Source of the DNA: Marsupella aquatica
Taxonomy: Eukaryota; Plantae; Marchantiophyta
Assembly: GCA_973895155.1 (NCBI GenBank)
Contig: OZ316899.1
Span: forward strand, 12,775,934-12,839,933
Direction: 5' to 3'
Length of the DNA: 64,000 bases
The notes beneath the pieces are model-generated. The model did no database searches. It worked only from the letters and a program-made list of their open reading frames with translations, and had not been told where the DNA came from. The position numbers and the translations under genes were made by a program. This document shows positions 1-24,149 of the stretch, in pieces (position 1 is the stretch's first letter; each line of letters begins with the position of its first letter).

Positions 1-304
1 TCATTCAAAACTTTGATGAGGCCCGTCAACAAACCCGAGCGCACAGGAGAGTGATGTGTCTTGATGAGGCACGTCTAAAGATGATTTTTGGCTTACCCGA
101 GGGGATAAACCGGGTAGAGTCGCGGGATCCTGGGGGCAAGGGAGCTAAATACCAATCATCTAGCTTCCCGACGGAAGGGGTGGTGGACAATGGGTTCTTA
201 ATGAGGACGTGCCTCATCCCAGAGGTAGCAGAACGCCTAGAGTTCTAGCGGTATGCCCTCCACATGATGGAACCTAGAGGAGAAATATTGGCCGCTCAGG
301 TCAT

Positions 305-3300
305 TGTGGTGCGTCCCATGGCTCCCTAAACCCAAGAAACCCCCCAGCTCAAGCCGATTCCCGCAGGTTTCGCGCTTGGCGAGGCCGTTTCCGCGGCTTA
401 GCGGCATGGGACGCTGCTAACCTTCTACTACTACTATTAACATTTTACACACATATACTGGACAGATCCTTCATCGGGTCATGAGATACGTAGCCGGCCT
501 AATATAGGCCTTCCCCTGTCTTCCCTTGTCTTCCCCTCCGTCTTGTTAGGTATGTTTGGATTCCGCCGCCGGAATGATCCCCAATAGGCTTGGTTAAGCC
601 GCTAAGACCTCTCTCAGCTCGACACATCCAACTCTCACTCCCCTGCTTACTTTCCTTCTTTCTGTTGATGTGGGCACTCTTCACACAAGTTAATGCGACA
701 CACAAATAGCAAAATGACTCATTCTGACTGAGTCATACCATGCACTTGCCATACAAACAGTACATCTCATACACAAGTTCTGCGAACTAAGCCGTGAGGC
801 CAACTCTATTCAGCTCTTAGGCATGAGGAAACATGAATATACACAAGGGTCACTGTATGACTAACCGAGAGCTTCTCGTACTACTTGATCCCAGCCCGGC
901 TGGTGCAAACTAAAAACTTGCTAAAGAAGAGGCCCTGAGCTCCCCGCTGCCCAGGTACTTATCCTGGTAGTGGATCCGCCATTCTTTGCATCGTAAGCCT
1001 AATCTACTTAACAAAAATCTACTTGCCCGAATCTACCTATGTACAGCAAGGCAGGAGCACAAGTGTTGCTCCTACCAGTGGGACCGCAATCCCACTAAGC
1101 TAAGTGTCAGGGCCGCTCCTGGTTCTGATCCTAATCCTAAACGTGGAGATCCGTGCCCGCCCTGCCCACTCACGCCTCCTCCCTCCACGTCCGCCCTCCC
1201 TAAAAGGAACGGCGCCCTTGCACCGTCACGACACCGGTGGTGGATCCTCAATGGACGCCCCCAACACTTCCTCCTCAGCCACTGCCGTTGGCCCGCCTAC
1301 TGACAGATTACCTGCCCTTGACCGAGTCAACTCTCCCTCGGCCTGACTGGGTCCACCTTCGGCTTCAGCCTCGACACCGGCCTCGGCAATACCCACGGCT
1401 TCGGCTTCAGCCACCCCCACGGCTTCGGCTTCAGCCACTCCCTCGGCTTCGGCCTCCCCTTCCCCTAGGGTAGTTGGATCCTTAGCTGTGACCCTGTCTG
1501 GGGTCGGTGCCGGGTCTACCTCCTTGATCACCACGGCCTGTGAAGTCGTATTACTCCTTGACCCTGAAGGTTTCCGCTTCTTCTTCGTTGGTGGCTCGGC
1601 AGCTGGTCCCTTCCCCTTCCCACTTACCTCCGGCACTGGTGCAGGTGGCGCGGCTTGTCCTTCGGCAATTACCACCCCTGGTAACTGGTTTGTCCCAACA
1701 GGAGATGGACCTGCTGCAGCTAAGCATTTAAATACTGCGGCTTGTTTCTTCAGCCGCTCTGTTTGGTTGTCGGCCCGCCGCTGTAGGTTCTCCATCTTCC
1801 TCGTGATTTCCTCCAACTCCTCTTGGGTTTCATCCAGGTCCTTACGTGCCCCCTCCAGCTCGTTTTTGGCCTCCTCCTGCTCCCTGTGGGCTTCCTCCAA
1901 TTCCTTCTTCAAGGTAGCCTTCTCCTCCTGGGTTGCTCTTAGCTCCTTGTCGAGCTCTGCAATGATGACAGACTCCATCTGGTTCATCTTGGCGTAAGTC
2001 TGTTCGAGCATCTCGTCCTTCTCCCTTAGGTCGGCCTTGAAGCTGGCCGTCAGGGACGCAAGCTCCTGCTGCAGCGCCATAATCCCTTGATAGGATTTCC
2101 CTAACTCGACCTCCTTCTGCTCAAGGGCTCCGCGGATTTTCTCGAGCTCCCCTTTCAACGCCCATTCCTTTCTTTGGGTCTCCGCCATGGCCCGGCTGTT
2201 GGCTGTTATGTGGGCCTCCTCTGTATTCTTCAGCTCTTGCTTCCACTTTTCCCTTTCTTTGATCGTGTCGGCCAACTCTTCCTGCGTCTGAGTCAGTTTA
2301 TCCTTGATATTCTGATTATCAGCCTGCGCGGCGTCCAACTGCCCCTGCATGATGTTCAGCTCATGTCGTTTAATCCGCAGTTCATCTTGGGCTTTCTTGG
2401 CCGCCCTTAGATCTTCAATCTCGGCTTCCATCCTCCTAAGCCGCCGAATGACCTCGTCCTTCTTGCTTCTCTCTAAAGCCACCGCTTCTTCTAATTGGTG
2501 CTTTTCCAACTGCTCCCTATGGAAAAAGGGTCCTACCTCCAACTCCTCTCCAAAGATGCCGAGCGCAAGTTCCCCACACATCTCACCATACTCCATGGCT
2601 CTATTCTTAGCGTAGGTGGAGTAAGTAGAAGTGATCGGCATCGCCCATCGTGGCCTCTGCTCCCAAGCCGTCCTGCGGATCTCTTCAATCGTGGCTAGAG
2701 GTTTGCTTCCTTTTTCGGCTAGCCGCCTGATGTCCTCCGGCCAATCTCCTCCTGGTAAATCCTTTTCCTTAGCCAGGGCGGCCTCTTCCTCCTGCTTGAT
2801 TCGCTCCTGAAATTCCTGCACCGTCTGTTTTATGCCGTCGAAGCTCGGGGGAGCAACATCTGGTGGGGGAGACTCAGGGCTACTCTGCTGGTTGGGGTCC
2901 CCTCGCACTACCCTTGGAAGTGTGGGGACAAACCGGCCACAGGTCCTTACTCCTGGAACGTGATGGTCCGACCCATAGCCGGAATTATCATGGCTGCAGT
3001 CCTCCACTGCCTCCTCTACCTCTTGGATTTCCGGCTTCTCCCTCTCCTCTTCCTCGGTAGGAGCTTCAGGCAATTCTGCCTCAGATTCGGAGCTTGAGGT
3101 TCCCACGTACATTCGAACACCTGGCTTGGATTCCGGCCTGATTCTCTCGTCTCCAGCAAAGGGGTTTTCTCTTGTGAGCCGGTGTAGGCCTACCTCTGTA
3201 GTAGTGTCCTGCATGGTTGCCGTTGCCGTTGTTGTTGCCGATGCCGATTTCTTTTCTTTCTCCAGTAGTTTCAGCAGACTCTGCATGCCTGGTTGCTGCA

Positions 3301-4961
3301 TCGGCAAGTCTTCCTTCCTGGGCCTAAACACCTGCTCGATCGTAGGACTAACAGGTGGTTGAGGCTTCTCAGCCAACGGCCTCGGCGTTGGAGCTTCCTC
3401 GGGTGCCCTTACCTGCAGGGGAAGTACCGGGGCAAAAGTCTGACCTCTGGCATACCGGCACAACAGCGGCATGTGATAGCCAAGCCGCGACACGCTCCCC
3501 ATGCCGATTACCTGCTGCTCCTCCTTTAAGATCTTCTTCAATTGGTTGAGGAGGTACCCGTTGTAGTCCCGGCTTGGGTCTGGCCTTTCTGCCAGATAGA
3601 CCTGTGCCTTGCCGATCTCTGCCCTCGGCAAGTTACAATGCATGGTCACCCGCAAGAAGTCGATCATCTCTCCTTTGTGCGGGTTGGTGCAGGTGTTCCG
3701 GAAGAAGCCATTCTTCGTTGATGGCCCGGGGAACGACCGGAACTCCTTGTCAGGCAAGGTCTTCCTGGTATCAACTTTGGTCTTATTGCCCATCGGCAAG
3801 CCAAACACTTCGGCAATCACCTTGGGAGTAAGATAGAAATCCTTCCCATATATCCTCGTGCAATTGGTCTCGGGTTCCCATGACCCCACGAATTCTAATA
3901 GGTCTGACTCCGGTACCTCCGGCTTCAGCCATGGTAATCTTACAAAGGCCTCCAAGCCGGATCCGGCCATGAAGCCTTGGTACTTCTTGGTCTGCATGGC
4001 CGTAAAGCATGCATCCTCCTCCCGTGCAAAATGTAGTTGCACCTCCACCGGTAGGGTTGCCGCCCAGCCCTTCCAGGTGTCATCCCTGGTTGGAATGGCC
4101 TTGATGGGATCGACCTCCTCCTCTTCGGCTTCTCCCTGCCTCCTGCTCTGCTGCTCGGCTGGCTTCTTTGGTGCCGTCGACCTCGTTCTTTTTGCCGGGG
4201 TGGCTTCATCGTTGACGGCTCCCTTCCTCTTCATCTCTGCTGCCGTGGAGGTTTCTCCTAGCACCGTTGCCTGGGTCCACCTTTCCGTGCTACCCTTTAA
4301 TTCCCAGTGTATGTCGTTGCAGTTCTTGATGGCCTCTCGGATGCCGACGACGCTGTCCTTGCAAAACAGAAGATCGTCGAGTTGATTGGAAGTAGGCGTC
4401 CACAGGAACTCGTCCTTGATGAGTTCGCCTCCTAAGAAAGCCGTCTTCTGCAGCTCCCACAATCGAGCGAGCTCCTGCCGTTCTCGAGCTGCCCTTTCTG
4501 ACTCCTCGTCCTCGTAAGTCTTGATGTACTCAGTTGCCCGTTCGAACAGGCATCCCCAGAAATGTGCCGCTTGATTGACGTTGCTCATACCCTCCTTAGG
4601 TTGATCGTCGGTATCTACTCTCTCCCCGAGTGCTTGCCTAAGCAGCTGACAGTAGTTGGCCTCCCGTAGTCGTCTGCCTAGTTCGTGCTCGCAAATGAGC
4701 CACCATCTCCTGCAAGCGCTCCTTACCCCTCTCCTCTGCCGGTCCTTCTTCCCGTTGATCCTTCCTAGCCGCCGACGCTTAACGCGCCCTAACCCTAATC
4801 GGGTTTTCACCCTCAGCCTTACCTCCGGCCTCTGCCCGGGTTCCATGGTTGCCCCTAATTGTTTATATTTTCCTTGTTTTGTCACTATACTAAGGTGTTC
4901 CTAGGGTGCCTTCCTGCTTTACCCACTTAACCGGCCGAGTGATTCCTGTCTAGGCATCACA
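305..4961 (-). repeat. 3' LTR of element A (4657 bp), containing a long ORF
   Basis: Near-identical to 11186-15842 (about a dozen substitutions seen by eye). On the minus strand it begins TGTGATGCC immediately after the PPT and ends CACCACA. Confidence 0.96.
1226..4846 (-). CDS. LTR-encoded accessory protein of family A, 3' LTR copy (1206 aa from ATG 4846, or 1120 aa from ATG 4588)
   Basis: Uninterrupted 3.6-kb ORF entirely inside the LTR. Globular domain with FVGSWEPETNCTRIYGKDFYLTPKVIAEVFGLPMG motif, basic NLS-like segments (KRK..PAKRTR, KKKRK), ~270 aa heptad-rich coiled coil. Conserved in the solo LTR and in the 42.8-kb fragment. Confidence 0.85.
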   Translation of the reverse strand: MEPGQRPEVRLRVKTRLGLGRVKRRRLGRINGKKDRQRRGVRSACRRWWLICEHELGRRLREANYCQLLRQALGERVDTDDQPKEGMSNVNQAAHFWGCLFERATEYIKTYEDEESERAARERQELARLWELQKTAFLGGELIKDEFLWTPTSNQLDDLLFCKDSVVGIREAIKNCNDIHWELKGSTERWTQATVLGETSTAAEMKRKGAVNDEATPAKRTRSTAPKKPAEQQSRRQGEAEEEEVDPIKAIPTRDDTWKGWAATLPVEVQLHFAREEDACFTAMQTKKYQGFMAGSGLEAFVRLPWLKPEVPESDLLEFVGSWEPETNCTRIYGKDFYLTPKVIAEVFGLPMGNKTKVDTRKTLPDKEFRSFPGPSTKNGFFRNTCTNPHKGEMIDFLRVTMHCNLPRAEIGKAQVYLAERPDPSRDYNGYLLNQLKKILKEEQQVIGMGSVSRLGYHMPLLCRYARGQTFAPVLPLQVRAPEEAPTPRPLAEKPQPPVSPTIEQVFRPRKEDLPMQQPGMQSLLKLLEKEKKSASATTTATATMQDTTTEVGLHRLTRENPFAGDERIRPESKPGVRMYVGTSSSESEAELPEAPTEEEEREKPEIQEVEEAVEDCSHDNSGYGSDHHVPGVRTCGRFVPTLPRVVRGDPNQQSSPESPPPDVAPPSFDGIKQTVQEFQERIKQEEEAALAKEKDLPGGDWPEDIRRLAEKGSKPLATIEEIRRTAWEQRPRWAMPITSTYSTYAKNRAMEYGEMCGELALGIFGEELEVGPFFHREQLEKHQLEEAVALERSKKDEVIRRLRRMEAEIEDLRAAKKAQDELRIKRHELNIMQGQLDAAQADNQNIKDKLTQTQEELADTIKEREKWKQELKNTEEAHITANSRAMAETQRKEWALKGELEKIRGALEQKEVELGKSYQGIMALQQELASLTASFKADLREKDEMLEQTYAKMNQMESVIIAELDKELRATQEEKATLKKELEEAHREQEEAKNELEGARKDLDETQEELEEITRKMENLQRRADNQTERLKKQAAVFKCLAAAGPSPVGTNQLPGVVIAEGQAAPPAPVPEVSGKGKGPAAEPPTKKKRKPSGSRSNTTSQAVVIKEVDPAPTPDRVTAKDPTTLGEGEAEAEGVAEAEAVGVAEAEAVGIAEAGVEAEAEGGPSQAEGELTRSRAGNLSVGGPTAVAEEEVLGASIEDPPPVS

Positions 4962-7900
4962 TAGCTCCCCACTTAATTGTGAAGCGTCCTCGCGAACAAC
5001 TTCATCTTCGTCCATATAGTATTTCTTGAGGCGGTCATAATGGATGCGAACTGGATATACCTCTCCCGTAATGTTGGCCAATTGCACGGAGCCATTGGGG
5101 AACATCATGGTTACTCTAAAGGGTCCTAACCAGCGAGTGTAAAGCTTTCCTGGAAACCTACTATACCTACTGTCATAAAGTAGCACAAGATCACCGGTAT
5201 GAATACTAACTACTTTTAACCTTTTATCATACTGCTGCTTCATGATATTCTGTCTATATTCTACTCTCTCGGCTGAAATCATTCTCGCTTCCTCTAAAGC
5301 TTCTAACCTATATTCTCGCTCCTTTAGGCTCTCCTCCGCTGAGGCTCTTTCTTCAATTGTAACTTGAAATGTCGGTATCTCAAGTTGCATGGGTACCAGG
5401 GCTTCTTGTCCAAAGGTTAAGAAGAAGGGTGTATGACCGGTAGTGGATTTATAGGCAAGATTGTAAGCAAAAACAGCAGCAAACAATTTATCATCCCAAT
5501 CGAGTTTGTTCTGAGCTACTGTTTTGTTCAATATCTTTCCTATGATTCCGTTTGCTCGTTCTGTCAACCCGTTTGCCTTTGGATGGTAGGGAGTAGTAGG
5601 TCTATGTTTAACTAAATACTGCTCATTTAAACGACTAATTATATCATTCAAAAAATGGGTTCCTCTATCACTAACTAATTCTAGGGGTGCTCCATACCTG
5701 GTGAAGATCTGCTCATACATGAATCTAGCCGTAGTAATTGCATCATCCTTCGTTGTTGGTCTGGCCTCTACCCATTTAGTTGCATAATCCGTAGCCAGGA
5801 TTATGTACTTGTTCCGTCGAGGGTGGGTCAGTGGTTTCAGAGGTCCAATGTAATCAATACCCCACTTCTCGAATGGTGCCAGAGGTAGAATAGGGTGCAG
5901 TGGATGCCTGGTGGACGCCCTTGGTCCTCCCGCTCGTTGACAAGGATCGCATTGTTTGATAAACTGATAGACATCTTTGTGCAAGGTGGGCCACCAGTAA
6001 CCGGCATTTAATATCTTCTTAGACGTGGTTACTGGGGCAAAATGTCCTCCGGCCTCCTCTCCATGCATGGCCCGTAGGACTCGTTTTACCTCTCTCTTCT
6101 CCAAACACCTTTGAATCGTGCCGTTGATTCCATGCTTGTGCAGTATGCCTTTAATGCACTGATACTGTCTGAACTTCCGCACAAAGACTGCGGCTTGCTC
6201 TCGGCTTAATCCTGGCTGTAATCTGGAAGTGCTGAGAAATTGTAAAATCTCAGGGTACCATGTACCAGCTATTTCCACAACGAATAGCTCCTCGTCGGGG
6301 AATCGATCATCGATGCAATCCGTGGCAGGTTTACCTGTGATCCTTGAAAAGAAGTCGGCATTGGCATGTAACTTTCCTGGCTTGATCCTCAGCTCATAGT
6401 CAAACTCCTGTAATAGCAAAATCCATCTTGCTACTCTGCCTGTAAGGTCCGGCTTATTGACTAGGTACTTCAAACTTTCATGATCAGTATGAAAGATTAC
6501 CTTGTACCCTAGTAAATAATGCCTAAACTTTTTACAAGAATAAATGACTCCTAATGCTTCTCTTTCCGTGGTAGAGTAGTTCCGTTCGGCATCGGCAAGC
6601 TGACGGCTTGCGAAGTATATGGGATGGTCCCTTCCTTTCTCATCCAACTGACTTAGTACTGAGCCAATACAGAAGCCCGAGACATCTACAAAAACATGAA
6701 AATCTTTGTTCCAGTCCGGTGCTATCATGACTGGGGCCTCTACTAACATCTGCTTCAATTCTACCACCGCTGTGACTCGTTCGGGTGTGGGTTCGAAGTC
6801 TGCTCCTGCCTTGAGCATATTGGTTAATGGTAAAGCTAGCTTGGCAAAATCCTTGATGAACCGGCGATAGTAACCAATGCATCCCAAGAAGGATCTTACA
6901 TCCTTTATGTTCTTAGGTTGCATGATATCTAGCCATACTGCTAGCTTACCTTTGTCAATCTCAATGCCCTTCCTTGATACCTTGTGACCTAGTAGCACCC
7001 CCTCGGTTACTGCAAAAAAACATTTATCTGGGTGTAACTTGAGACCCACCTCCCTACATCTCATGAAGGTTTTCCTGAGGTATTTAGCATGTTTCGATGC
7101 CTTCCCGAATACTGCAAAGTCATCAATGAAGATTTCCATGAACTTTCTCAAGTAATCATGAAAAATGTTCACCATTAATCGTTGGAACATAGCTGGTGCG
7201 TTGCAGAGTCCAAACGGCATACGATTGAAGACATAGATCCCCCATTCCGTGATGAAGGCCGTCTTGATTTGGTCTTCCTGCCGAATCCTGATTTGGTTAT
7301 AACCAGAGTATCCATCCATGAATGAATATAGTTCATGACTGGCTACCATGTCTAGTACCATATCAGTAAACGGTAAAGGAAAATGGTCTTTTAATGTTGC
7401 TTCATTCAGCTTCCTGTAATCCTGACAAACCCGGATCTTGGGTTTACCATCGGGTCCAGCTTTCTTGGGAACTATCACAATTGGAGACACCCAGTCTGAA
7501 TGCAGGACTGGAGTGATGAATCCAGCTTCCACTAGTTTGTCGATTTCTGTTTTGACCAGCAGGGAATACTTCGGGTTCATCCTTCGAATTGGTTGTCGAA
7601 ATGATTTGGCTCCTAACATGAGATCAATTCGATGTTCCCCTAGTGTTGGATCTACGCCCTTTAGATCTTGGTGACTCCATGCAAACACATCCTGAAATTC
7701 AATTAATAAGTCACTGATCTCTTTCTCGAGCTCAGGTGCTAGGTTTCTCCCTAAGTTCAGTTCTCTTCCCTCTCCTAAGTCGAGCTTCCGATATTGCCGT
7801 GCTTGGATCATATTAATCTGCTTCTTCAAATTCGGGTCCAGTTCGGCTTCCAGTCTCTCTAATCTCATACCTCCATAAACTGGGATCTCGGCTGGACTAG

Positions 7901-8216
7901 CCGAGTCGGTCCCTTCCTTGGTGTCCATAGATTGTCCCCTTACCGGTCTATTCGGTTTTGAATTAGTGGTCGGCTCCCCTTCCTGCCTTGGCTCTGGATC
8001 GTGTCTGTCCATCTCATCCACCTCTTGCTCCTGAGAGTTAGGCCGCTGTGCTCTCTCGGCTTCTAATAGGGCCTCAATTTGTTTTGCCCTCGTAATCGGC
8101 TTGTATGCCGATCCCTTGGTATTTAATTCCTTGCCGATGATCGATGGCGTTGTGGACCACGTCGGCTCTGCCACAACGCCTGCAGAAAATCCACTGTCCC
8201 TGCTACTGCTCCCCAC
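4950..8216 (-). CDS. pol: Pol (reverse transcriptase, RNase H, integrase), probably reached by -1 frameshift from gag-PR
   Basis: RT motifs DYRKLN..KDHFPLPF, DGYSGYNQI, MPFGLCNAP, FIDD; RNase H VDVSG..YFASR..YSTTERE; integrase HHCC (H..GH..CDPCQ), WGID, SDRG, NGLTER, and GPF C-terminal module. No chromodomain and no extra archaeal-type RNase H. Confidence 0.95.
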   Translation of the reverse strand: MGSSSRDSGFSAGVVAEPTWSTTPSIIGKELNTKGSAYKPITRAKQIEALLEAERAQRPNSQEQEVDEMDRHDPEPRQEGEPTTNSKPNRPVRGQSMDTKEGTDSASPAEIPVYGGMRLERLEAELDPNLKKQINMIQARQYRKLDLGEGRELNLGRNLAPELEKEISDLLIEFQDVFAWSHQDLKGVDPTLGEHRIDLMLGAKSFRQPIRRMNPKYSLLVKTEIDKLVEAGFITPVLHSDWVSPIVIVPKKAGPDGKPKIRVCQDYRKLNEATLKDHFPLPFTDMVLDMVASHELYSFMDGYSGYNQIRIRQEDQIKTAFITEWGIYVFNRMPFGLCNAPAMFQRLMVNIFHDYLRKFMEIFIDDFAVFGKASKHAKYLRKTFMRCREVGLKLHPDKCFFAVTEGVLLGHKVSRKGIEIDKGKLAVWLDIMQPKNIKDVRSFLGCIGYYRRFIKDFAKLALPLTNMLKAGADFEPTPERVTAVVELKQMLVEAPVMIAPDWNKDFHVFVDVSGFCIGSVLSQLDEKGRDHPIYFASRQLADAERNYSTTEREALGVIYSCKKFRHYLLGYKVIFHTDHESLKYLVNKPDLTGRVARWILLLQEFDYELRIKPGKLHANADFFSRITGKPATDCIDDRFPDEELFVVEIAGTWYPEILQFLSTSRLQPGLSREQAAVFVRKFRQYQCIKGILHKHGINGTIQRCLEKREVKRVLRAMHGEEAGGHFAPVTTSKKILNAGYWWPTLHKDVYQFIKQCDPCQRAGGPRASTRHPLHPILPLAPFEKWGIDYIGPLKPLTHPRRNKYIILATDYATKWVEARPTTKDDAITTARFMYEQIFTRYGAPLELVSDRGTHFLNDIISRLNEQYLVKHRPTTPYHPKANGLTERANGIIGKILNKTVAQNKLDWDDKLFAAVFAYNLAYKSTTGHTPFFLTFGQEALVPMQLEIPTFQVTIEERASAEESLKEREYRLEALEEARMISAERVEYRQNIMKQQYDKRLKVVSIHTGDLVLLYDSRYSRFPGKLYTRWLGPFRVTMMFPNGSVQLANITGEVYPVRIHYDRLKKYYMDEDEVVREDASQLSGELCDA
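4962..4976 (-). other. Polypurine tract of element A (AAGTGGGGAG), inside the pol reading frame
   Basis: Purine-rich run immediately before the TG start of the 3' LTR. Confidence 0.75.
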
Positions 8217-11116
8217 TTAGCCGTTTCATCCAATTGGTCTACATCCTTAACTTCCTCCGGAATTGCAGCTAAAAAGGTGGATTCTATTGTAAAGCAGTCC
8301 TCGACCTCTTCGTCTTCTTCTTCCAAGTCACCTTCCATTGGTTCTTGCCATAATCCGCTGGGGGGTACCTCTGGTCCAAAGACACCTTCTTCGGTTAGGT
8401 TAGTGAAGCATTCTAACCAACGTACTTCATCGGCTGACTCCAGTCCACTATCGTACCCATCTACTTCCCTTATGCTTTTCCTACGGTCATCCTTAGTGTC
8501 CCAGGATACCGTGATAGAGGGGGTCCCGAAAGTGAACTGCTTTTTACCCCAATCTTCTATTACCTCGGCTAGGTACAGCCATGGCCTACCAATCAATAGC
8601 CGGAATGACGTAGGATTTACCGGCTTCATTACTACATAGTTAATGCTAAAGAAGATACCTCCTATCTCTGTCTTGATGCCGGTTAACACTCCCGTCGGAA
8701 TGACCTGATATCCATTGGCCATGTTCAACACTCTTCCAGTCATCTCCGGTGTTAGACCCCACCCTTTTGCTGTTGAATCAATCATAATACATACCCCTGA
8801 TCCTCCATCGATGGGTACCCGTAGTAATAATTCTCCTTGAATCATTAATGGTAATGCTGGGGCTCCTTGATCTTCTTCTATCATTAGTACGTCGGATCTG
8901 GTTGCTACCTTGGGTAATCTCGGCTTGCTGAGAATAGCCTTCCTTAATTGCTTCCGGAAGTACGGGCTATTTTTCAATAGTTGACCTACTGTTGCCGAGA
9001 CTCTAGATTCTAGTACATCTTTAGCCAGGTCATAGGGAACAATCGGCTTCTCTTCTGGTGGTGTTTCCGTCTTGGATTCGGCCAGTTTTGCCACGCTAGT
9101 CTCCACAGCTGTTGGGTCTTCCGAAGCAAACAATGCTTTTGCTCGTTTTACATCCTTGGCAATGGCTTCGGTATTCTCCAGGGTTTCTAATTCTCTTAGT
9201 TGTTCCTTAACACTAGCCGTAACAGAGGGGTAGAACAACTTAGGATGATCTCGATTGAAGTCGCTATCTTGTGAAGGATTGGTTTCACTGGTGGGCTCAT
9301 GGCTTACCTGTATTGCCGGAGCCCTCCCTTCTCCTTCTGTTGATGTTGACGAAGAGTCGATCCTTTCCTTCGTAACCTTCCCTTTATTTTTGGCCAGCCC
9401 ATCCCACCTTTCCTTCCTTCTGGTAGATCGAGTAGAGACCCGGTAGCAATCATGATCTAAATCCTCCTCTGAGAAGGTTGATAGGGCTTCGGCCTCATCA
9501 TCAGATGGTACGAACTCTGCCTCGGCATCCTCTTGCCATCCTAGTTCGATGTGGTTGATTTGAACTCCTCCGGGGGTAGTACCTGGCGGTAAGATCTTGA
9601 TCGGCAAAAGCTTATGATTTGCGGCCAGGCCTGCCAACCAAGTAGGACATTGCCCTAGCATATGACCTTCCTGTCGGCATCCCATACATAGCTGAGCTGG
9701 TTGTCCATCACCCTGTTTGCGTGCATTCGGGCATTCTCTAGCAAAATGGCCAGGTTGACCACAATTATAGCACGCCGCAAATCTTTGCACATTCGGCCTA
9801 GGAGGTACTGACGGGTTCTGAATAATCCGAGGATACATCTCTCCTGGATTGTTCCTTAACCCTGACCACAGAGATGCAGGTCTGTTGGATAGGTCTCGTG
9901 CTCCAGTCTCACTGATGCTGAAAACACTATCAGCGGCATCTCCCAAAAAGTACTCTACTTCTCCCTGACATGGTCTGATCTCGGCCACATGCCGAACATG
10001 ATTAGTATTAAGCTTAGGACAAGCATCTTTATGGTGTCCGGTTTTATAACATAAGGCACACCATACAGAGCTATCCTCCTGTACTACCTTCTTCTTTGGT
10101 TTTACCTCTGCAATGATAGCCTTAAGTTGCTCGGTAAGGGCTACGATGTTATCTGGTGGCTTAGCCTCCATCTTGACTTTCGTCTTCCCTCTCCTTCTGC
10201 CCTTCCTTTTCCTAGTTTTTTCTTCTTCAGAACTAGAAGATGACTCACTCTTGCTACTCCCACTATTCGAGCTTGACTTATCACTTCTAGACTTCTTGGA
10301 ATGTTTCTTCTTCTTATCTTTTTTCTTGTGGGGTGATCCCTCCTCTGATGAGGAACTCTCAGACTTAAGCTGTTTCTTCCGGCTTGTGATATCTGCATTA
10401 ATGTATAATTGAATATCCTTAATTGCTTCGGCTAAGGTCTCCGGGTTCTCCTTCCTAATTGCAAAACTCATCTTCTGTGGCAAAGCATTCACCAACCATT
10501 GAAGTTGCATACCTTCAGATGCATTGGTCTTTGTACGTCTTACCAGTTTCTGAAAGCGTTGCAAGAACTTCCTGAAGGATTTGTTCTCCTTGAACCGAAG
10601 TTGTCCCAACTTCAGCACTGCTAGTTCTGAAGTTCCAATGGGTCGAAACTCCTTAACAAAGAGTGTTTTGAAGATATCCCAGATGGCTTGATCTTCCACA
10701 TCTAATGCTCTGTACCAAGGCCTAGCCTCACCCTTGAACAGGCCGGGAAGAATCTGCATCTTGATGGCCGATTCTCCATTTGCTGCAGCGGTTCCCTCGA
10801 AATCATCCAACCATTCGTCCGGATCCTCATCTCCTCTCCCATGAAATGCCTTGTAATGTATGCGCGACCGCTGGCTCAATCTGGTCCCTGGCCTCTCGTC
10901 TGGCCGTGCCTCTGGTTCCCCCATGTCGGTTGGAGACTCACTTCTCCTTACCGACTCTTCTTCTGGTATGTCTTCTTCGACGCCACTTCCAATTTCGGAG
11001 CTACCAGCTCTTTCTGCCCCTCTCAGTCGCTGTGTATCATGCCACCCGGCGAGCTGCTGCAGTCGAGCTCTCTCCCATTGAATCACTCTTTCTTCCCTCG
11101 GCGTAAGGTCAGTCAT
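8123..11116 (-). CDS. gag: Gag plus aspartic protease (997 aa)
   Basis: Capsid motif FHGRGDEDPDEWLDDF; three CX2CX4HX4C knuckles; protease IDGGSG..LLIGRPWL. Confidence 0.93.
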   Translation of the reverse strand: MTDLTPREERVIQWERARLQQLAGWHDTQRLRGAERAGSSEIGSGVEEDIPEEESVRRSESPTDMGEPEARPDERPGTRLSQRSRIHYKAFHGRGDEDPDEWLDDFEGTAAANGESAIKMQILPGLFKGEARPWYRALDVEDQAIWDIFKTLFVKEFRPIGTSELAVLKLGQLRFKENKSFRKFLQRFQKLVRRTKTNASEGMQLQWLVNALPQKMSFAIRKENPETLAEAIKDIQLYINADITSRKKQLKSESSSSEEGSPHKKKDKKKKHSKKSRSDKSSSNSGSSKSESSSSSEEEKTRKRKGRRRGKTKVKMEAKPPDNIVALTEQLKAIIAEVKPKKKVVQEDSSVWCALCYKTGHHKDACPKLNTNHVRHVAEIRPCQGEVEYFLGDAADSVFSISETGARDLSNRPASLWSGLRNNPGEMYPRIIQNPSVPPRPNVQRFAACYNCGQPGHFARECPNARKQGDGQPAQLCMGCRQEGHMLGQCPTWLAGLAANHKLLPIKILPPGTTPGGVQINHIELGWQEDAEAEFVPSDDEAEALSTFSEEDLDHDCYRVSTRSTRRKERWDGLAKNKGKVTKERIDSSSTSTEGEGRAPAIQVSHEPTSETNPSQDSDFNRDHPKLFYPSVTASVKEQLRELETLENTEAIAKDVKRAKALFASEDPTAVETSVAKLAESKTETPPEEKPIVPYDLAKDVLESRVSATVGQLLKNSPYFRKQLRKAILSKPRLPKVATRSDVLMIEEDQGAPALPLMIQGELLLRVPIDGGSGVCIMIDSTAKGWGLTPEMTGRVLNMANGYQVIPTGVLTGIKTEIGGIFFSINYVVMKPVNPTSFRLLIGRPWLYLAEVIEDWGKKQFTFGTPSITVSWDTKDDRRKSIREVDGYDSGLESADEVRWLECFTNLTEEGVFGPEVPPSGLWQEPMEGDLEEEDEEVEDCFTIESTFLAAIPEEVKDVDQLDETAKWGAVAGTVDFLQALWQSRRGPQRHRSSARN
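8133..8192 (-). promoter_or_regulatory. Programmed -1 ribosomal frameshift signal (slippery GGAUUUU plus stem-loop/pseudoknot)
   Basis: G GAT TTT in gag frame (8186-8192), 5-nt spacer, perfect 10-bp stem GGCGTTGTGG/CCACAACGCC, loop GCCGA complementary to downstream TCGGC. Pol lies in the -1 frame. Confidence 0.8.
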
Positions 11117-11163
11117 TACCTACGCTTCCGTTCTAACTTCATATCTCACGGCTTAAGAAATGC

Positions 11164-11181
11164 CCCCTCCATCTAGCGCCA
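11164..11181 (-). other. Primer binding site of element A (TGGCGCTAGATGGAGGGG), likely tRNA-Asn
   Basis: 18 nt starting TGG, 4 nt after the 5' LTR. Matches my recollection of the plant tRNA-Asn(GUU) 3' end with one mismatch. Confidence 0.8.
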
Positions 11182-11185
11182 AAAA

Positions 11186-14100
11186 TGTGGTGCGTCCCAT
11201 GGCTCCCTAAACCCAAGAAACCCCCCAGCTCAAGCCGATTCCCGCAGGTTTCGCGCTTGGCGAGGCCGTTTCCGCGGCTTAGCGGCATGGGACGCTGCTA
11301 ACCTTCTACTACTACTATTAACATTTTACACACATATACTGGACAGATCCTTCATCGGGTCATGAGATACGTAGCCGGCCTAATATAGGCCTTCCCCTGT
11401 CTTCCCCTGTCTTCCCCTCCGTCTTGTTAGGTATGTTTGGATTCCGCCGCCGGAATGATCCCCAATAGGCTTGGTTAAGCCGCTAAGACCTCTCTCAGCT
11501 CGACACATCCAACTCTCACTCCCCTGCTTACTTTCCTTCTTTCTGTTGATGTGGGCACTCTTCACACAAGTTAATGCGACACACAAATAGCAAAATGACT
11601 CATTCTGACTGAGTCATACCATGCACTTGCCATACAAACAGTACATCTCATACACAAGTTCTGCGAACTAAGCCGTGAGGCCAACTCTATTCAGCTCTTA
11701 GGCATGAGGAAACATGAATATACACAAGGGTCACTGTATGACTAACCGAGAGCTTCTCGTACTACTTGATCCCAGCCCGGCTGGTGCAAACTAAAAACTT
11801 GCTAAAGAAGAGGCCCTGAGCTCCCCGCTGCCCAGGTACTTATCCTGGTAGTGGATCCGCCATTCTTTGCATCGTAAGCCTAATCTACTTAACAGTAATC
11901 TACTTGCCCGAATCTACCTATGTACAGCAAGGCAGGAGCACAAGTGTTGCTCCTACCAGTGGGACCGCAATCCCACTAAGCTAAGTGTCAGGGCCGCTCC
12001 TAGTTCTGATCCTAATCCTAAACGTGGAGATCCATGCCCGCCCTGCCCACTCACGCCTCCTCCCTCCACGTCCGCCCTCCCTAAAAGGAACGGCGCCCTT
12101 GCACCGTCACGACACCGGTGGTGGATCCTCAATGGACGCCCCCAACACTTCCTCCTCAGCCACTGCCGTTGGCCCGCCTACTGACAGATTACCTGCCCTT
12201 GACCGAGTCAACTCTCCCTCGGCCTGACTGGGTCCACCTTCGGCTTCAGCCTCGACACCGGCCTCGGCAATACCCACGGCTTCGGCTTCAGCCACCCCCA
12301 CGGCTTCGGCTTCAGCCACTCCCTCGGCTTCGGCCTCCCCTTCCCCTAGGGTAGTTGGATCCTTAGCTGTGACCCTGTCTGGGGTCGGTGCCGGGTCTAC
12401 CTCCTTGATCACCACGGCCTGTGAAGTCGTATTACTCCTTGACCCTGAAGGTTTCCGCTTCTTCTTCGTTGGTGGCTCGGCAGCTGGTCCCTTCCCCTTC
12501 CCACTTACCTCCGGCACTGGTGCAGGTGGCGCGGCTTGTCCTTCGGCAATTACCACCCCTGGTAACTGGTTTGTCCCAACAGGAGATGGACCTGCTGCAG
12601 CTAAGCATTTAAATACTGCGGCTTGTTTCTTCAGCCGCTCTGTTTGGTTGTCGGCCCGCCGCTGTAGGTTCTCCATCTTCCTCGTGATTTCCTCCAACTC
12701 CTCTTGGGTTTCATCCAGGTCCTTACGTGCCCCCTCCAGCTCGTTTTTGGCCTCCTCCTGCTCCCTGTGGGCTTCCTCCAATTCCTTCTTCAAGGTAGCC
12801 TTCTCCTCCTGGGTTGCTCTTAGCTCCTTGTCGAGCTCTGCAATGATGACAGACTCCATCTGGTTCATCTTGGCGTAAGTCTGTTCGAGCATCTCGTCCT
12901 TCTCCCTTAGGTCGGCCTTGAAGCTGGCCGTCAGGGACGCAAGCTCCTGCTGCAGCGCCATAATCCCTTGATAGGATTTCCCTAACTCGACCTCCTTCTG
13001 CTCAAGGGCTCCGCGGATTTTCTCGAGCTCCCCTTTCAACGCCCATTCCTTTCTTTGGGTCTCCGCCATGGCCCGGCTGTTGGCTGTTATGTGGGCCTCC
13101 TCTGTATTCTTCAGCTCTTGCTTCCACTTTTCCCTTTCTTTGATCGTGTCGGCCAACTCTTCCTGCGTCTGAGTCAGTTTATCCTTGATATTCTGATTAT
13201 CAGCCTGCGCGGCGTCCAACTGCCCCTGCATGATGTTCATCTCATATCGTTTAATCCGCAGTTCATCTTGGGCTTTCTTGGCCGCCCTTAGATCTTCAAT
13301 CTCGGCTTCCATCCTCCTAAGCCGCCGAATGACCTCGTCCTTCTTGCTTCTCTCTAAAGCCACCGCTTCTTCTAATTGGTGCTTTTCCAACTGCTCCCTA
13401 TGGAAAAAGGGTCCTACCTCCAACTCCTCTCCAAAGATGCCGAGCGCAAGTTCCCCACACATCTCACCATACTCCATGGCTCTATTCTTAGCGTAGGTGG
13501 AGTAAGTAGAAGTGATCGGCATCGCCCATCGTGGCCTCTGCTCCCAAGCCGTCCTGCGGATCTCTTCAATCGTGGCTAGAGGTTTGCTTCCTTTTTTGGC
13601 TAGCCGCCTGATGTCCTCCGGCCAATCTCCTCCTGGTAAATCCTTTTCCTTAGCCAGGGCGGCCTCTTCCTCCTGCTTGATTCGCTCCTGAAATTCCTGC
13701 ACCGTCTGTTTTATGCCGTCGAAGCTCGGGGGAGCAACATCTGGTGGGGGAGACTCAGGGCTACTCTGCTGGTTGGGGTCCCCTCGCACTACCCTTGGAA
13801 GTGTGGGGACAAACCGGCCACAGGTCCTTACTCCTGGAACGTGATGGTCCGACCCATAGCCGGAATTATCATGGCTGCAGTCCTCCACTGCCTCCTCTAC
13901 CTCTTGGATTTCCGGCTTCTCCCTCTCCTCTTCCTCGGTAGGAGCTTCAGGCAATTCTGCCTCAGATTCGGAGCTTGAGGTTCCCACGTACATTCGAACA
14001 CCTGGCTTGGATTCCGGCCTGATTCTCTCGTCTCCAGCAAAGGGGTTTTCTCTTGTGAGCCGGTGTAGGCCTACCTCTGTAGTAGTGTCCTGCATGGTTG

Positions 14101-15842
14101 CCGTTGCCGTTGTTGTTGCCGATGCCGATTTCTTTTCTTTCTCCAGTAGTTTCAGCAGACTCTGCATGCCTGGTTGCTGCATCGGCAAGTCTTCCTTCCT
14201 GGGCCTAAACACCTGCTCGATCGTAGGACTAACAGGTGGTTGAGGCTTCTCAGCCAACGGCCTCGGCGTTGGAGCTTCCTCGGGTGCCCTTACCTGCAGG
14301 GGAAGTACCGGGGCAAAAGTCTGACCTCTGGCATACCGGCACAACAGCGGCATGTGATAGCCAAGCCGCGACACGCTCCCCATGCCGATTACCTGCTGCT
14401 CCTCCTTTAAGATCTTCTTCAATTGGTTGAGGAGGTACCCGTTGTAGTCCCGGCTTGGGTCTGGCCTTTCTGCCAGATAGACCTGTGCCTTGCCGATCTC
14501 TGCCCTCGGCAAGTTACAATGCATGGTCACCCGCAAGAAGTCGATCATCTCTCCTATGTGCGGGTTGGTGCAGGTGTTCCGGAAGAAGCCATTCTTCGTT
14601 GATGGCCCGGGGAACGACCGGAACTCCTTGTCAGGCAAGGTCTTCCTGGTATCAACTTTGGTCTTATTGCCCATCGGCAAGCCAAACACTTCGGCAATCA
14701 CCTTGGGAGTAAGATAGAAATCCTTCCCATATATCCTCGTGCAATTGGTCTCGGGTTCCCATGACCCCACGAATTCTAATAGGTCTGACTCCGGTACCTC
14801 CGGCTTCAGCCATGGTAATCTTACAAAGGCCTCCAAGCCGGATCCGGCCATGAAGCCTTGGTACTTCTTGGTCTGCATGGCCGTAAAGCATGCATCCTCC
14901 TCCCGTGCAAAATGTAGTTGCACCTCCACCGGTAGGGTTGCCGCCCAGCCCTTCCAGGTGTCATCCCTGGTTGGAATGGCCTTGATGGGATCGACCTCCT
15001 CCTCTTCGGCTTCTCCCTGCCTCCTGCTCTGCTGCTCGGCTGGCTTCTTTGGTGCCGTCGACCTCGTTCTTTTTGCCGGGGTGGCTTCATCGTTGACGGC
15101 TCCCTTCCTCTTCATCTCTGCTGCCGTGGAGGTTTCTCCTAGCACCGTTGCCTGGGTCCACCTTTCCGTGCTACCCTTTAATTCCCAGTGTATGTCGTTG
15201 CAGTTCTTGATGGCCTCTCGGATGCCGACGACGCTGTCCTTGCAAAATAGAAGATCGTCGAGTTGATTGGAAGTAGGCATCCACAGGAACTCGTCCTTGA
15301 TGAGTTCGCCTCCTAAGAAAGCCGTCTTCTGCAGCTCCCACAATCGAGCGAGCTCCTGCCGTTCTCGAGCTGCCCTTTCTGACTCCTCGTCCTCGTAAGT
15401 CTTGATGTACTCAGTTGCCCGTTCGAACAGGCATCCCCAGAAATGTGCCGCTTGATTGACGTTGCTCATACCCTCCTTAGGTTGATCGTCGGTATCTACT
15501 CTCTCCCCGAGTGCTTGCCTAAGCAGCTGACAGTAGTTGGCCTCCCGTAGTCATCTGCCTAGTTCGTGCTCGCAAATGAGCCACCATCTCCTGCAAGCGC
15601 TCCTTACCCCTCTCCTCTGCCGGTCCTTCTTCCCGTTGATCCTTCCTAGCCGCCGACGCTTAACGCGCCCTAACCCTAATCGGGTTTTCACCCTCAGCCT
15701 TACCTCCGGCCTCTGCCCGGGTTCCATGGTTGCCCCTAATTGTTTATATTTTCCTTGTTTTGTCACTATACTAAGGTGTTTCTAGGGTGCCTTCCTGCTT
15801 TACCCACTTAACCGGCCGAGTGATTCCTGTCTAGGCATCACA
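11186..15842 (-). repeat. 5' LTR of element A (4657 bp), containing a long ORF
   Basis: Second copy of 305-4961; on the minus strand it is followed by TTTT and then the PBS. Confidence 0.96.
12107..15469 (-). CDS. LTR-encoded accessory protein of family A, 5' LTR copy (1120 aa from MSNVNQ)
   Basis: Same ORF as 1226-4588. A CGA>TGA change at 15551-15553 closes only the upstream extension. Confidence 0.8.
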   Translation of the reverse strand: MSNVNQAAHFWGCLFERATEYIKTYEDEESERAARERQELARLWELQKTAFLGGELIKDEFLWMPTSNQLDDLLFCKDSVVGIREAIKNCNDIHWELKGSTERWTQATVLGETSTAAEMKRKGAVNDEATPAKRTRSTAPKKPAEQQSRRQGEAEEEEVDPIKAIPTRDDTWKGWAATLPVEVQLHFAREEDACFTAMQTKKYQGFMAGSGLEAFVRLPWLKPEVPESDLLEFVGSWEPETNCTRIYGKDFYLTPKVIAEVFGLPMGNKTKVDTRKTLPDKEFRSFPGPSTKNGFFRNTCTNPHIGEMIDFLRVTMHCNLPRAEIGKAQVYLAERPDPSRDYNGYLLNQLKKILKEEQQVIGMGSVSRLGYHMPLLCRYARGQTFAPVLPLQVRAPEEAPTPRPLAEKPQPPVSPTIEQVFRPRKEDLPMQQPGMQSLLKLLEKEKKSASATTTATATMQDTTTEVGLHRLTRENPFAGDERIRPESKPGVRMYVGTSSSESEAELPEAPTEEEEREKPEIQEVEEAVEDCSHDNSGYGSDHHVPGVRTCGRFVPTLPRVVRGDPNQQSSPESPPPDVAPPSFDGIKQTVQEFQERIKQEEEAALAKEKDLPGGDWPEDIRRLAKKGSKPLATIEEIRRTAWEQRPRWAMPITSTYSTYAKNRAMEYGEMCGELALGIFGEELEVGPFFHREQLEKHQLEEAVALERSKKDEVIRRLRRMEAEIEDLRAAKKAQDELRIKRYEMNIMQGQLDAAQADNQNIKDKLTQTQEELADTIKEREKWKQELKNTEEAHITANSRAMAETQRKEWALKGELEKIRGALEQKEVELGKSYQGIMALQQELASLTASFKADLREKDEMLEQTYAKMNQMESVIIAELDKELRATQEEKATLKKELEEAHREQEEAKNELEGARKDLDETQEELEEITRKMENLQRRADNQTERLKKQAAVFKCLAAAGPSPVGTNQLPGVVIAEGQAAPPAPVPEVSGKGKGPAAEPPTKKKRKPSGSRSNTTSQAVVIKEVDPAPTPDRVTAKDPTTLGEGEAEAEGVAEAEAVGVAEAEAVGIAEAGVEAEAEGGPSQAEGELTRSRAGNLSVGGPTAVAEEEVLGASIEDPPPVS

Positions 15843-15847
15843 GTCAT

Positions 15848-18022
15848 CCAGGTGGAGAACTATCGGCCCAGGAAGTGGGCGTCCTTCTTTGTCAAGAAGT
15901 TCCACCAGGAGATGGAGCGGAGAAGGAAGACTTTGTACCTTGGTGGGAGGGCGTACTTTGCTAGCCACATCAAAATCATCATCGAGTGGTACGCTCGCTT
16001 CGACCGCCAAAGCCTCCCACGTCTCAACGAGCCCGAGCTGACCCCGCCAAAATGGGTGTTCCCAGCCCAGGTAAGGCGACCGCAGCCCAAGGCCCGAAGC
16101 CTGGTAGCTGCAAGTCGTGCTACCCCGGCCCCGCAACCCGCCGCTGCCGCCCCGCCATGCATACCCATTGATGGTATCGCGACCTTAGACGCGATCAATC
16201 AGGACAATGCCGTCAAAGCTGGGCCGGATGAAGCCGTACCCGAAGTAGATGCCACGGTAGCCGGGGAGATTCCGCCACCCCCCGCAGTGGTGCAGGAGAA
16301 CCACCCACCTCCAGTGGAACCAACCCCTTCGACCGACTTACCTCAAGGGCTGGATATGTCCACTCCTACTCCCGCACGGGTTGGAGTCTGCCCGTGCCCG
16401 AATCCAAAGGGACACAGTCTAGACCATCCGGAACTCTTTGCGTCGGGCACATTTCTGAACGGGTTGTTGGGAGATTTCTCGCATCAGATCTCTCGGGACA
16501 CTGGGGAATACATGGCCCGGAGGGTGGCCTACTTCTTCAACCAAGAGTTGGTTGCGGCAGTAAGGGCAGGACATGCGCAGGCAGAGACCGCGCAGAGAAT
16601 AGAGCGATATCGGGTTGAGTCTGCCTACCTAAAGGACGAAGTGGCAACCCAGGAGGCTGAACTCCAGCAACTACGGCCTCAGGTAATGGCCACGGAGGAC
16701 CAGGTCGCCAAGGCTAGAGCCCAAGCAGCGTTAGCAGTACAGGCCGAGCTCGGAAAGGACGCCAAGATCGTGCGACTCCGGACCAAGATTGACGGTTTGC
16801 AGGGGCAAGCCGTCAGTTGGCAAAAGGATCTGGAGGAAGCTGACTCCAGGTCTCAACGGGACACAACCGAGATTGACAACCTGAAGGCAGAGGTGGCGCG
16901 GCTTCGAGGAGAAGCCATGAAACAGGCCCAGTTGGTGGACAAGGTGACAAGCGACACCCAACAACTGGAGGAGGCATGCCAAGAGGCCGCGAAAGAGGCA
17001 GACGGGGCAAAGCGGGAAAACGAATCTTTGCTGGACCAGGTCCAGCTACTCAAGCAGAACGCCGACAGGCTCAAAAGGCAGCGGGATAGCCGCTCCCACT
17101 TAGGCGGCTCTGGCAAGCGTGCCAGGCATTAGCGACCGAGTAGGATTAGAGTAGAGTTAGGAATAGCTAAATTAGGCTATAGGGACAAGCACCTGCCCTA
17201 GTTAAAGCAGCACTGCCATGTTGTACAACCTGCGTAGATTAGGATCTTCTAATAAGACAAGCCGTTTTCTGGCCTGACAGCCAGCTTAGTTAGGACCTTA
17301 GTTAGCAAATCTTTGGGCGCGAGGGCACTCCGTTCCTTGGCCCTTAGTATTTAGTGCACCCCTCAGTAGAGGCAGGGGGGATTTTTAGTCTCAGTGTTGG
17401 ACATCCGCGGTATGTGCGGGGAGTCCCGACCTCTGGGAGTGAAAGAGTACCAAGGGGAGGGTGTAGGACTAAGCTTGCTGGGCAAGTGCGGAGCCGGGCT
17501 CCGTTGTAGTGTACACCCTCGGCCTCGGACCTGTTCATTCCAGGGCTTTCGGGTCAACTAAGTGTACGCATATGTCTCCTATGTAGTAAAATCCTTTCCC
17601 ACTATTTCCTTCGTGTAAATCAAGATTGTATGCTTGTGCGGATGTATATGTGTGAATCTCGTGTCTAGCCAACGCTTGGCCAAACGCACTACCCAAGTCG
17701 TACACGGGGTGCAGCTTGCGGGTAAGTGGTTGCGAGCCCAGGTTTAGTACCCATACCATCGAATCCGGATCAAAGGCGAACAACATGAAGGCTTAGAAGC
17801 CCGTAAGCCGGGGTCGATCCTATTGTCGACTAAGGTACATTCTGGCGGCGGAACACAAACCATACCTAGGAGGTGTCCGTATATGACCATAGGCGCACTA
17901 GCGCTAGTTTACGTGAGTTAGGTGCATTTCGTGCCTCCCTCCCTACCCGAACCCTCATTTTGATGAAGGATGTGCCTGTCTAAGTCGAAGCCCGGGTTAA
18001 GGCCTAGGCTGACGACGTGACA
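15848..18022 (+). repeat. Distal part of B1 5' LTR (continues in 1-304 and beyond the left edge)
   Basis: High identity to 25423-27599. Confidence 0.92.
15852..17132 (+). pseudogene. C-terminal part of the family-B LTR-encoded protein, split by insertion of A
   Basis: 426 open codons ending in a coiled coil and GKRARH; the upstream part is in 1-304. Confidence 0.8.
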
Positions 18023-18035
18023 TAGCCTTTGTTTT

Positions 18036-18053
18036 TGGCGCTAGATGGAGGGG
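18036..18053 (+). other. Primer binding site of B1 (TGGCGCTAGATGGAGGGG)
   Basis: Identical to the family-A PBS; 13 nt after the LTR end. Confidence 0.85.
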
Positions 18054-18151
18054 GCACTCTACGTGTAGTAGAGGGGAGACATGTGCAGGTGCACTTGGGC
18101 AGAATACACCAGGCCCTTGTGAGTTACTAACCATTGCATTTATACGAGTAA

Positions 18152-24100: not shown

Positions 24101-24149
24101 ATTAAGCAGGGAGCTATGTGATGCCGCCGGTATGGCGGGTAATGAGTAA
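18152..24149 (+). pseudogene. gag-pol pseudogene of B1
   Basis: MPVTRS start, FKGRHGDDPDEWLDEF, zinc knuckles, VDGGAG protease, RT (FINDF, mutated), RNase H and integrase fragments, with many stops and frameshifts. Confidence 0.93.

Follow-up and report, generated by a model that had tools for sequence, protein, structure and literature searches.

The window analysed here is a stretch of 64,000 nucleotides from the liverwort Marsupella aquatica (contig OZ316899.1, positions 12,775,934 to 12,839,933). It carries a Ty3/gypsy retrotransposon, element A, whose two long terminal repeats (LTRs) each contain an entire gene for a protein of 1,120 amino acids (aa). This open reading frame (ORF) is called ORF-X. 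The window also holds a solo LTR of the same family (family A) and members of a second family (family B). Element A is bordered by a target-site duplication (TSD) and has a primer-binding site (PBS) and a polypurine tract (PPT). Its features are as follows.

300-304: left TSD of element A, GTCAT, within a family B LTR gene
305-15842, minus strand: element A, Ty3/gypsy, recognised by its LTRs, TSD, PBS and PPT
305-4961, minus strand: 3' LTR of element A, 4,657 bp, TG..CA
305-1225, minus strand: non-coding LTR end, 921 bp, 89% identical to the solo LTR
1226-4588, minus strand: ORF-X in the 3' LTR, 1,120 aa when counted from the probable start Met; the frame is open to an ATG at 4846
1727-2779, minus strand: coiled-coil-like region of ORF-X, proline-poor and charged, with a weak Pfam ATG16 match
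3431-4138, minus strand: globular core of ORF-X, predicted VANC21/DUF1985/PMD-like fold, dN/dS 0.12
4788-4867, minus strand: candidate ORF-X promoter at the LTR 5' end, TATAAA plus TTAGGGTTAGG, function inferred
4950-8216, minus strand: pol ORF (reverse transcriptase, RNase H, integrase), with Pfam matches
4962-4974, minus strand: PPT AAGTGGGGAGCTA, adjoining the 3' LTR and overlapping the last integrase codons
8123-11119, minus strand: gag-protease ORF with Retrotrans_gag, a zinc knuckle and a DGGSG protease-like motif
8148-8192, minus strand: candidate -1 frameshift signal between gag-protease and pol, heptamer plus downstream stem-loop, function inferred
11164-11181, minus strand: PBS TGGCGCTAGATGGAGGGG, 4 nt after the 5' LTR
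11186-15842, minus strand: 5' LTR of element A, 4,657 bp
12107-15469, minus strand: ORF-X, 5' LTR copy, intact, 1,120 aa
15843-15847: right TSD of element A, GTCAT, pairing with the left TSD

An earlier note on this DNA had claimed that the LTR limits are fixed by the TSD, the TG/CA ends, the PBS and the PPT. This was borne out: the two GTCAT copies pair, the LTRs run from TG to CA, 4 nt separate the 5' LTR from the PBS, and the PPT borders directly on the 3' LTR. The PBS presumably matches tRNA-Asn. The LTRs make up 59.9% of the length of element A, which agrees with the 60% given before, and the internal region of 6,224 bp holds only gag-protease (PR) and reverse transcriptase-RNase H-integrase (RT-RH-IN). 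The two LTRs differ by 13 substitutions and no gaps (identity 99.72%). Contigs connect the PBS side (11180) with the LTR end at 305 in two of four public runs, and two listed contigs from other public runs cross the PPT/LTR junction; no single public contig in the four runs covers the whole element. The LTR duplication is not an assembly artefact, because the copies differ at 13 sites, the solo LTR has its own near-perfect TSD and the public contigs show the junctions. The same evidence largely answers the earlier concern that the duplication might be an artefact. The LTR divergence of 0.28% means that element A was inserted recently. The earlier note had taken the very low divergence as a sign of recent activity, with which the value of 0.28% is compatible. 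If the grass rate of 1.3e-8 is applied, which is not a liverwort rate, the insertion would be about 0.1 million years old.

Each LTR was also said to enclose an entire long sense ORF, and 1,120 aa are indeed stop-free in both copies. The stop-to-stop ORFs are 1224 aa (1226-4900) in the 3' LTR and 1147 aa (12107-15550) in the 5' LTR, whereas the longest ORF in shuffled LTRs (n=300) had a mean of 180 aa and a maximum of 381. The ORF-X copies differ by 5 amino acids, and the gene occupies 72% of the 4.66-kb LTR. The earlier description of an intact ORF of 3.4-3.6 kb in each LTR needs one refinement: owing to a stop at 15553 in the 5' copy, the copies are equal only from the second Met. From the first ATG (4846), the 3' LTR copy would encode 1,206 aa, i.e. 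86 extra codons. This ATG was rejected as the ORF-X start for two reasons: the 5' copy has its nonsense change (15553) before the second Met (15469), and nothing points to coding constraint in the 86 codons. In a comparison of codons 1-86 with the solo LTR, 4 codons differ synonymously and 32 non-synonymously, and an indel of 1 bp is present. Among the best-supported 40 of 81 variants in the four public runs, synonymous changes account for 2 of 8 before the second Met and for 12 of 22 after it. This Met (4588 in the 3' copy, 15469 in the 5' copy) is probably where ORF-X really begins, a point that the earlier note missed.

The remaining copies in the window allow ORF-X to be compared between separate insertions.

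36699-41370, plus strand: family A solo LTR of 4,672 bp, identity about 82%, TSD GTAGT/GTAGC (4/5)
42771-43612, plus strand: older ORF-X fragment, 78% identical
15843-18022, plus strand: remainder of the 5' LTR of B1, a family B element, continuing from window positions 1-304 and split by element A
18023-24116, plus strand: B1 internal region with the same PBS core, gag, pol and PPT
24117-27599, plus strand: B1 3' LTR, 3,483 bp, with a decayed ORF-X homolog
30129-33545, minus strand: 5' LTR of B2, the second family B copy, holding an ORF-X homolog

The solo LTR has the same ends as the LTRs of element A, and its ORF-X copy is decayed; a 111-bp internal inversion at 37144-37254 disrupts the N-terminal part. 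Family B has the PBS core of element A, a near-identical PPT and a pol that is 63% identical, and its core domain is 24% identical to that of element A on the alignment. In the B1 LTR, a broken ORF-X homolog takes up roughly LTR positions 96-2587 and an 893-bp non-coding tail comes after it; the B1 LTR pair is 94.3% identical. No copy with short LTRs and an internal ORF-X was found within the 64-kb window, and family B repeats the LTR-gene layout; the earlier note's reading thus fared well against the other copies. Judged from these sequences, the gene-in-LTR layout is common to the lineage, because the distant family B has the same design in LTRs of 3.5 kb. Positions 1-33560 form a three-level nest, with element A in the LTR gene of B1 and B1 in the gag of B2. 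In contigs of other public runs, positions within the LTR are joined to its end at 305, a pattern compatible with insertion of the element into related copies. Further along lie an older LTR tail that resembles family B (33552-34497, 73%) and an integrase fragment 87% identical to element A (34609-35283).

Selection was estimated as the ratio of non-synonymous to synonymous substitution rates (dN/dS). Between ORF-X and the solo LTR the ratio was 0.285 over 1,174 codons (95% bootstrap 0.24-0.34), with 0.12 for the core and 0.20 for the coiled coil, while the other two frames gave 0.85 and 1.18. Against the older fragment at 42771-43612 it was 0.17. These values lie well below 1, whereas the earlier note had named a ratio near 1 as counting against its reading, and show that ORF-X is under purifying selection. 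In family B, the ratio was 0.86 between the two LTRs of B1, which reflects drift after insertion, and 0.36 between B1 and B2. Selection therefore acted during replication and not after insertion, since the pair within one element differs from the separate insertions in this way. Within the LTR pair of element A, five of the six ORF-X differences are non-synonymous. Among the nine common LTR indels in other public runs, six fall in the non-coding tail, two in the last 25 codons and one is in-frame (drawn from 12 of 16 indels).

The LTR parts on both sides of ORF-X were also examined. The only TATAAA of the LTR lies at LTR position 95 (4862-4867) and is kept in the solo LTR, as is the TTAGGGTTAGG repeat at 4788-4798. 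The 373 bp upstream of the second Met are better read as a promoter and leader. At the other end, the 921-bp tail is 89% conserved between element A and the solo LTR, compared with 63% at synonymous sites, and likely contains the main promoter, R and U5. About 40 bp after the ORF-X stop (~1166-1200, minus strand), a G-rich purine run followed by TG is fully kept in the solo LTR. It could be a relic of an ancestral PPT, or an internal PPT that aids the copying of a 4.66-kb LTR. The hairpin TTCCG-GCGG-CGGAA is the sole DNA motif common to the post-ORF tails of both families, ~269 bp (A) and ~183 bp (B) from the end, and is possibly an RNA packaging or dimerisation signal. Rfam gave no match in window positions 1-16000.

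Element A has Pfam matches for gag, RT, RH and IN in the gypsy order, and the protease is visible only as the DGGSG motif in the gag ORF. The pol stop codon lies 10-12 nt within the 3' LTR. The gag-PR and pol ORFs overlap with a -1 shift in frame. The overlap contains the heptamer G GAT TTT (8186-8192) in register, a short spacer and then a stem-loop (-23.2 kcal/mol for a 61-nt stretch, z -2.06). A 765-nt contig of another public run crosses this region without a gap. A programmed frameshift between protease and RT is likely. The relative P0067 has a single continuous ORF where element A has the overlap.

Element A is a Ty3/gypsy non-chromovirus. A chromovirus was ruled out, as no chromodomain follows the integrase: Pfam gave no chromodomain match in the element, and pol terminates at the LTR. 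A typical Tat element was ruled out in the same way, as Pfam gave no match for a second RNase H in element A; a liverwort Tat, Z2, without the additional RNase H exists (PMC10508981, PMC13468544). Phygy/Selgy elements, which have a 4-bp TSD, are short and lack an extra ORF, were excluded by the 5-bp TSD, the 15.5-kb length and ORF-X. The 5-bp TSD and the lack of an additional RNase H fit Athila. Athila elements have a PBS for tRNA-Asp or tRNA-Asn; the PBS here differs from the Brassicaceae Athila PBS TGGCGCCGTTGCC. The internal extra ORF that about half of Athila elements have between pol and the 3' LTR does not occur in element A, where ORF-X is inside the LTR. Element A is best described as Athila-like, though it is not placed in Athila itself.

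For the placement among relatives, a FastTree tree of RT-RH was built from 110 of 120 Pol matches (at least 330 aligned residues) together with A and B and rooted at the midpoint. A, B, two Calypogeia fissa proteins and one unnamed protein formed a clade with support 1.0, which sits among Riccia, Marchantia and unnamed sequences, away from the angiosperm matches. Among named organisms, the liverwort Calypogeia fissa has the closest relatives of both Pol and ORF-X. Searching 1.84 billion proteins with a core-domain profile gave 50 matches at E <= 0.001; of the ten that were looked up, three are Calypogeia fissa gene models and the others are unnamed or 'hypothetical'. Full-length homologs such as P0173 have both the core and the coiled coil. 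The ORF-X N-terminus has modest similarity to P0173 near the start Met of the latter (7 of 1,000 shuffles reach the score) and none to family B (527 of 1,000). None of the 7,992 candidates from a word-index search with the full ORF-X proved to be a homolog. Longer fused forms of ORF-X were absent among 3,600 searched, which is weak evidence. Viral contigs had neither a PBS match nor an integrase relative, and none of the four loci from a metagenome PBS scan encodes relatives of gag, pol or ORF-X.

ORF-X consists of an N-terminal helical part, the globular core, a low-complexity linker, about 350 coiled-coil-like residues and an acidic tail, and has basic clusters resembling nuclear localisation signals. 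An env-like membrane protein was rejected, as there is no transmembrane segment and the maximum 19-residue hydropathy is 0.98. An AlphaFold model of the core, built from 38 sequences, had a predicted local distance difference test score (pLDDT) of 88.9. In a Foldseek search of PDB, the VANC21-DNA complex was the sole match covering the core model, with a template-modelling (TM) score of 0.49 (others <= 0.16) and an E value of 2.2. Alignment of the model with VANC21 by VIA-align gave Z 9.1 over 208 residues (root-mean-square deviation, rmsd, 3.9). In an unbiased search of 48,161 PDB chains, only VANC21 reached Z >= 2 (Z 8.7, 204 residues, rmsd 4.1). The ESM Atlas neighbours of the core include DUF1985 (0.87) and PMD (0.85) clusters, which are leads only at values <0.9. 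A PDB sequence search gave nothing significant, and a viral structure library gave no match at E <= 0.001. The core is predicted to have a DUF1985/VANC-type fold. The PMD-C and VANC DUF1985 domains are reported to be structurally alike (bioRxiv 2024.09.27.615353; PMC13547354), and dimerisation of VANC through a coiled coil has been predicted (PMC13547354). ORF-X is consequently not an orphan, which the earlier note missed: the predicted VANC/PMD-like fold and the coiled coil make it akin to accessory ORFs of plant elements.

Considering these results, we favour, with moderate confidence, the reading that ORF-X is a selected accessory protein that likely binds DNA and works in trans for its own family, countering silencing or promoting transcription. 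What was found at the locus underlies this reading: the boundaries that place the gene in the LTRs, the two ORFs and their purifying selection, the recurrence of the layout in family B and the resemblance of the model to the VANC21 structure. VANC recognises short motifs and demethylates its own family, and its targets are tandem motifs in non-coding DNA (PMC5735166). A stronger form of the reading can be put forward tentatively: the LTR may be a self-contained gene for a VANC-like, sequence-specific anti-silencing protein, so that the gene arrives twice with each insertion, and the solo LTRs that remain after the host has deleted elements may keep making the factor and reawaken the family in trans.

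The layout could have arisen in a simple manner. The ancestor would have been of Athila type, with pol followed by an accessory ORF in sense orientation. Plus-strand priming would then have shifted to a PPT inside the end of the integrase gene, upstream of the ORF, and this would be the sole innovation needed. The shift would put the whole ORF into U3, and reverse transcription would then copy ORF-X to both LTRs. The gene is assigned to U3 because the tail presumably holds the usual promoter, R and U5. The TATA box ~95 bp into the LTR would drive an LTR-confined ORF-X mRNA ending in the conserved 0.9-kb tail, and a second promoter in the tail would start a genomic RNA of ~11 kb with the order R-U5-gag-pol-ORF-X-R. 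The cost would be a plus-strand strong-stop DNA of 4.66 kb. The likely benefit would be a TATA-driven gene in every LTR, solo LTRs included, yielding a nuclear DNA-binding factor in trans; the 5', 3' and solo LTRs would all be stand-alone ORF-X cassettes.

Several points weigh against the proposed function. The core and VANC21 are 9% identical, and the Foldseek E value is not significant. Pfam assigns no family to the core; among the families listed, DUF1985 (PF09331) and PMD (PF10536) match neither ORF-X nor any of the 38 aligned homologs. By 8-mer count, a tandem cluster of VANC-like targets is absent from the LTR. A common fold with VANC21 does not establish the function of ORF-X. The host PMD proteins MAIN and MAIL1 also promote the silencing of transposable elements, so the fold does not fix the direction of the effect. 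Lastly, the two-promoter model, with its putative U3/R/U5 borders, comes from motifs.

ORF-X might alternatively be an ordinary accessory ORF of the Athila/Ogre type, such as a nucleic-acid chaperone or a cofactor of integration or of the particle. Only the 3' copy would be expressed, by splicing of the genomic RNA or by reinitiation on it, and the 5' copy would be silent cargo. That the ORF sits in the LTR would be a side effect of the shifted PPT, which the element tolerates. The gene order on the likely genomic RNA is indeed that of Athila, with pol followed by a 3' sense ORF, and 57% of Ogre elements carry a PMD ORF whose function is not known (PMC6317226). There are donor-like GTAAG sites before the second Met, and the neutral drift of the ORF-X copies after insertion, as seen in the five non-synonymous differences out of six, is what any LTR would show. 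We nevertheless regard this alternative as rather unlikely, because the TATA box and the telobox-like repeat are conserved at the LTR 5' end in a region without coding constraint, and a costly layout has been retained in two families that are ~63% alike in pol.

The TATA box at LTR position 95 can also be taken as the main promoter, so that U3 would be ~120 bp and ORF-X would lie in a giant R/U5. ORF-X would then open the genomic RNA of ~15 kb, as ORF1 does in Ogre and ORF0 in Retrosat, and splicing or suppression of the 5' poly(A) site would give access to gag-pol. The uniqueness of this TATAAA in the LTR and its conservation in the solo LTR agree with such a model, as does a TGTA-rich, T/G-rich stretch downstream of ORF-X that is typical of plant 3' ends. 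The model is improbable, however, as it requires a minus-strand strong-stop DNA of 4.5 kb and poly(A) read-through, and conservation within the LTR is highest in the post-ORF tail (89%), whose GC-box-like motifs would suit a promoter. It is very improbable that the long repeats come from misassembly or local duplication, or that the ORF is a captured host gene decaying neutrally. The lack of a public contig spanning element A would agree with such readings, but the TSD, TG..CA ends, PBS, PPT, 13 copy differences, solo LTR with its own TSD, junctions in other runs, dN/dS far below 1 and second family with the same layout speak against them. The trans-acting factor is accordingly kept as the preferred reading of ORF-X.

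Other features were also noticed in the window. LINE-like (long interspersed nuclear element) reverse-transcriptase fragments at 35982-36602 and 41897-42523 (minus strand), recognised in translations by eye, flank the solo LTR, which was probably inserted within a LINE. A decayed CACTA/En-Spm-type transposase (Transposase_21, DUF4218) lies at 52920-56000 (plus strand), a 15-bp tandem array at 45100-45260 and a 143-bp tandem repeat at 63184-63612. The GC content of the window is 40-60% per kb.

Plant LTRs are usually treated as non-coding control regions, and the formation of solo LTRs as neutralisation of elements by the host. A gene under selection takes up 72% of the LTR in element A, so recombination may preserve this gene instead of eliminating it. 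The predicted fold would tie the long-unexplained accessory ORFs of plant Ty3/gypsy elements (PMD, env-like) to the sole transposon anti-silencing protein with a solved DNA complex, and with this link the role of accessory ORFs becomes testable in a transformable liverwort. If the stronger form of the reading given above is true, this would be the first VANC-type anti-silencing system in a retrotransposon, and the fold would occur in transposons well beyond eudicot MuDRs. Pipelines with a short LTR limit (the ATHILAfinder default is 1-2 kb) would miss elements like A. Gene annotators likely count LTR ORFs as host genes, and the unnamed Calypogeia proteins may be examples.

Genes in LTRs are familiar from animal viruses. 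The sag gene of mouse mammary tumour virus (MMTV) is reportedly an ORF within the LTR, and foamy-virus bel and human immunodeficiency virus nef overlap U3. Like ORF-X, they are coding sequences in an LTR that are copied to both ends in each replication; unlike ORF-X, which fills 72% of a 4.66-kb plant LTR, they are much shorter, and their sequences are unrelated. Among plant elements, Retrosat2/RIRE3/RIRE8 (PMC3485330) and the giant-LTR Ogre (PMC6431247) share LTRs >3 kb and an extra ORF with element A. In contrast, Retrosat2 ORF0 lies upstream of gag-pol (PMC3485330) and the Ogre extra ORFs are internal (PMC6431247), none being described inside the LTR in the available parts. The additional ORFs of plant elements described in the main text of a review are likewise internal only (PMC7264820). 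An LTR-resident gene is not mentioned in the available parts of PMC10508981, PMC13468544, PMC12885004, the ATHILAfinder preprint, PMC11728184, PMC12844716 and PMC3601003. The suggestion that the gene-in-LTR design is undescribed in plants is thereby supported: no plant precedent was found in the literature searched, with Repbase, GyDB, the REXdb per-element table and most subscription journals outside its scope. A hidden precedent is possible, as TatII forward extra ORFs lie upstream of the polyprotein in 23% and downstream in 26% (PMC6317226 Additional file 5), and such near-equal rates would arise if the ORFs sat in LTRs.

The closest overall resemblance is to the Athila/OTA non-chromoviruses (REXdb, PMC6317226; PMC7264820), which share with element A the PR-RT-RH-IN order, the lack of a chromodomain and the 5-bp TSD. 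The OTA group also has long LTRs (up to ~5 kb) and a sense extra ORF after pol, and PMD-type extra ORFs occur in Ogre. The extra ORFs described for this group have internal positions, either after pol and before the 3' LTR or in the space from the 5' LTR to gag, whereas ORF-X lies within both LTRs and in solo LTRs; moreover, the internal region of element A is only gag-pol and its PPT overlaps the integrase end. For the protein, the resemblance is to VANC21 of the VANDAL21 MuDR (PDB 9lnj/9lnk; PMC5735166) and to host MAIN/MAIL1, through the predicted core fold (Z 8.7-9.1, ~205 residues). VANC21 also has an attached coiled coil and is encoded by a transposon. ORF-X differs from it by the 9% identity, the lack of Pfam DUF1985/PMD and of tandem target motifs, and a carrier that is a retrotransposon LTR instead of a eudicot VANDAL-type MuDR. 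By sequence and carrier ORF-X is not a member of the VANC family, yet it may function like VANC.

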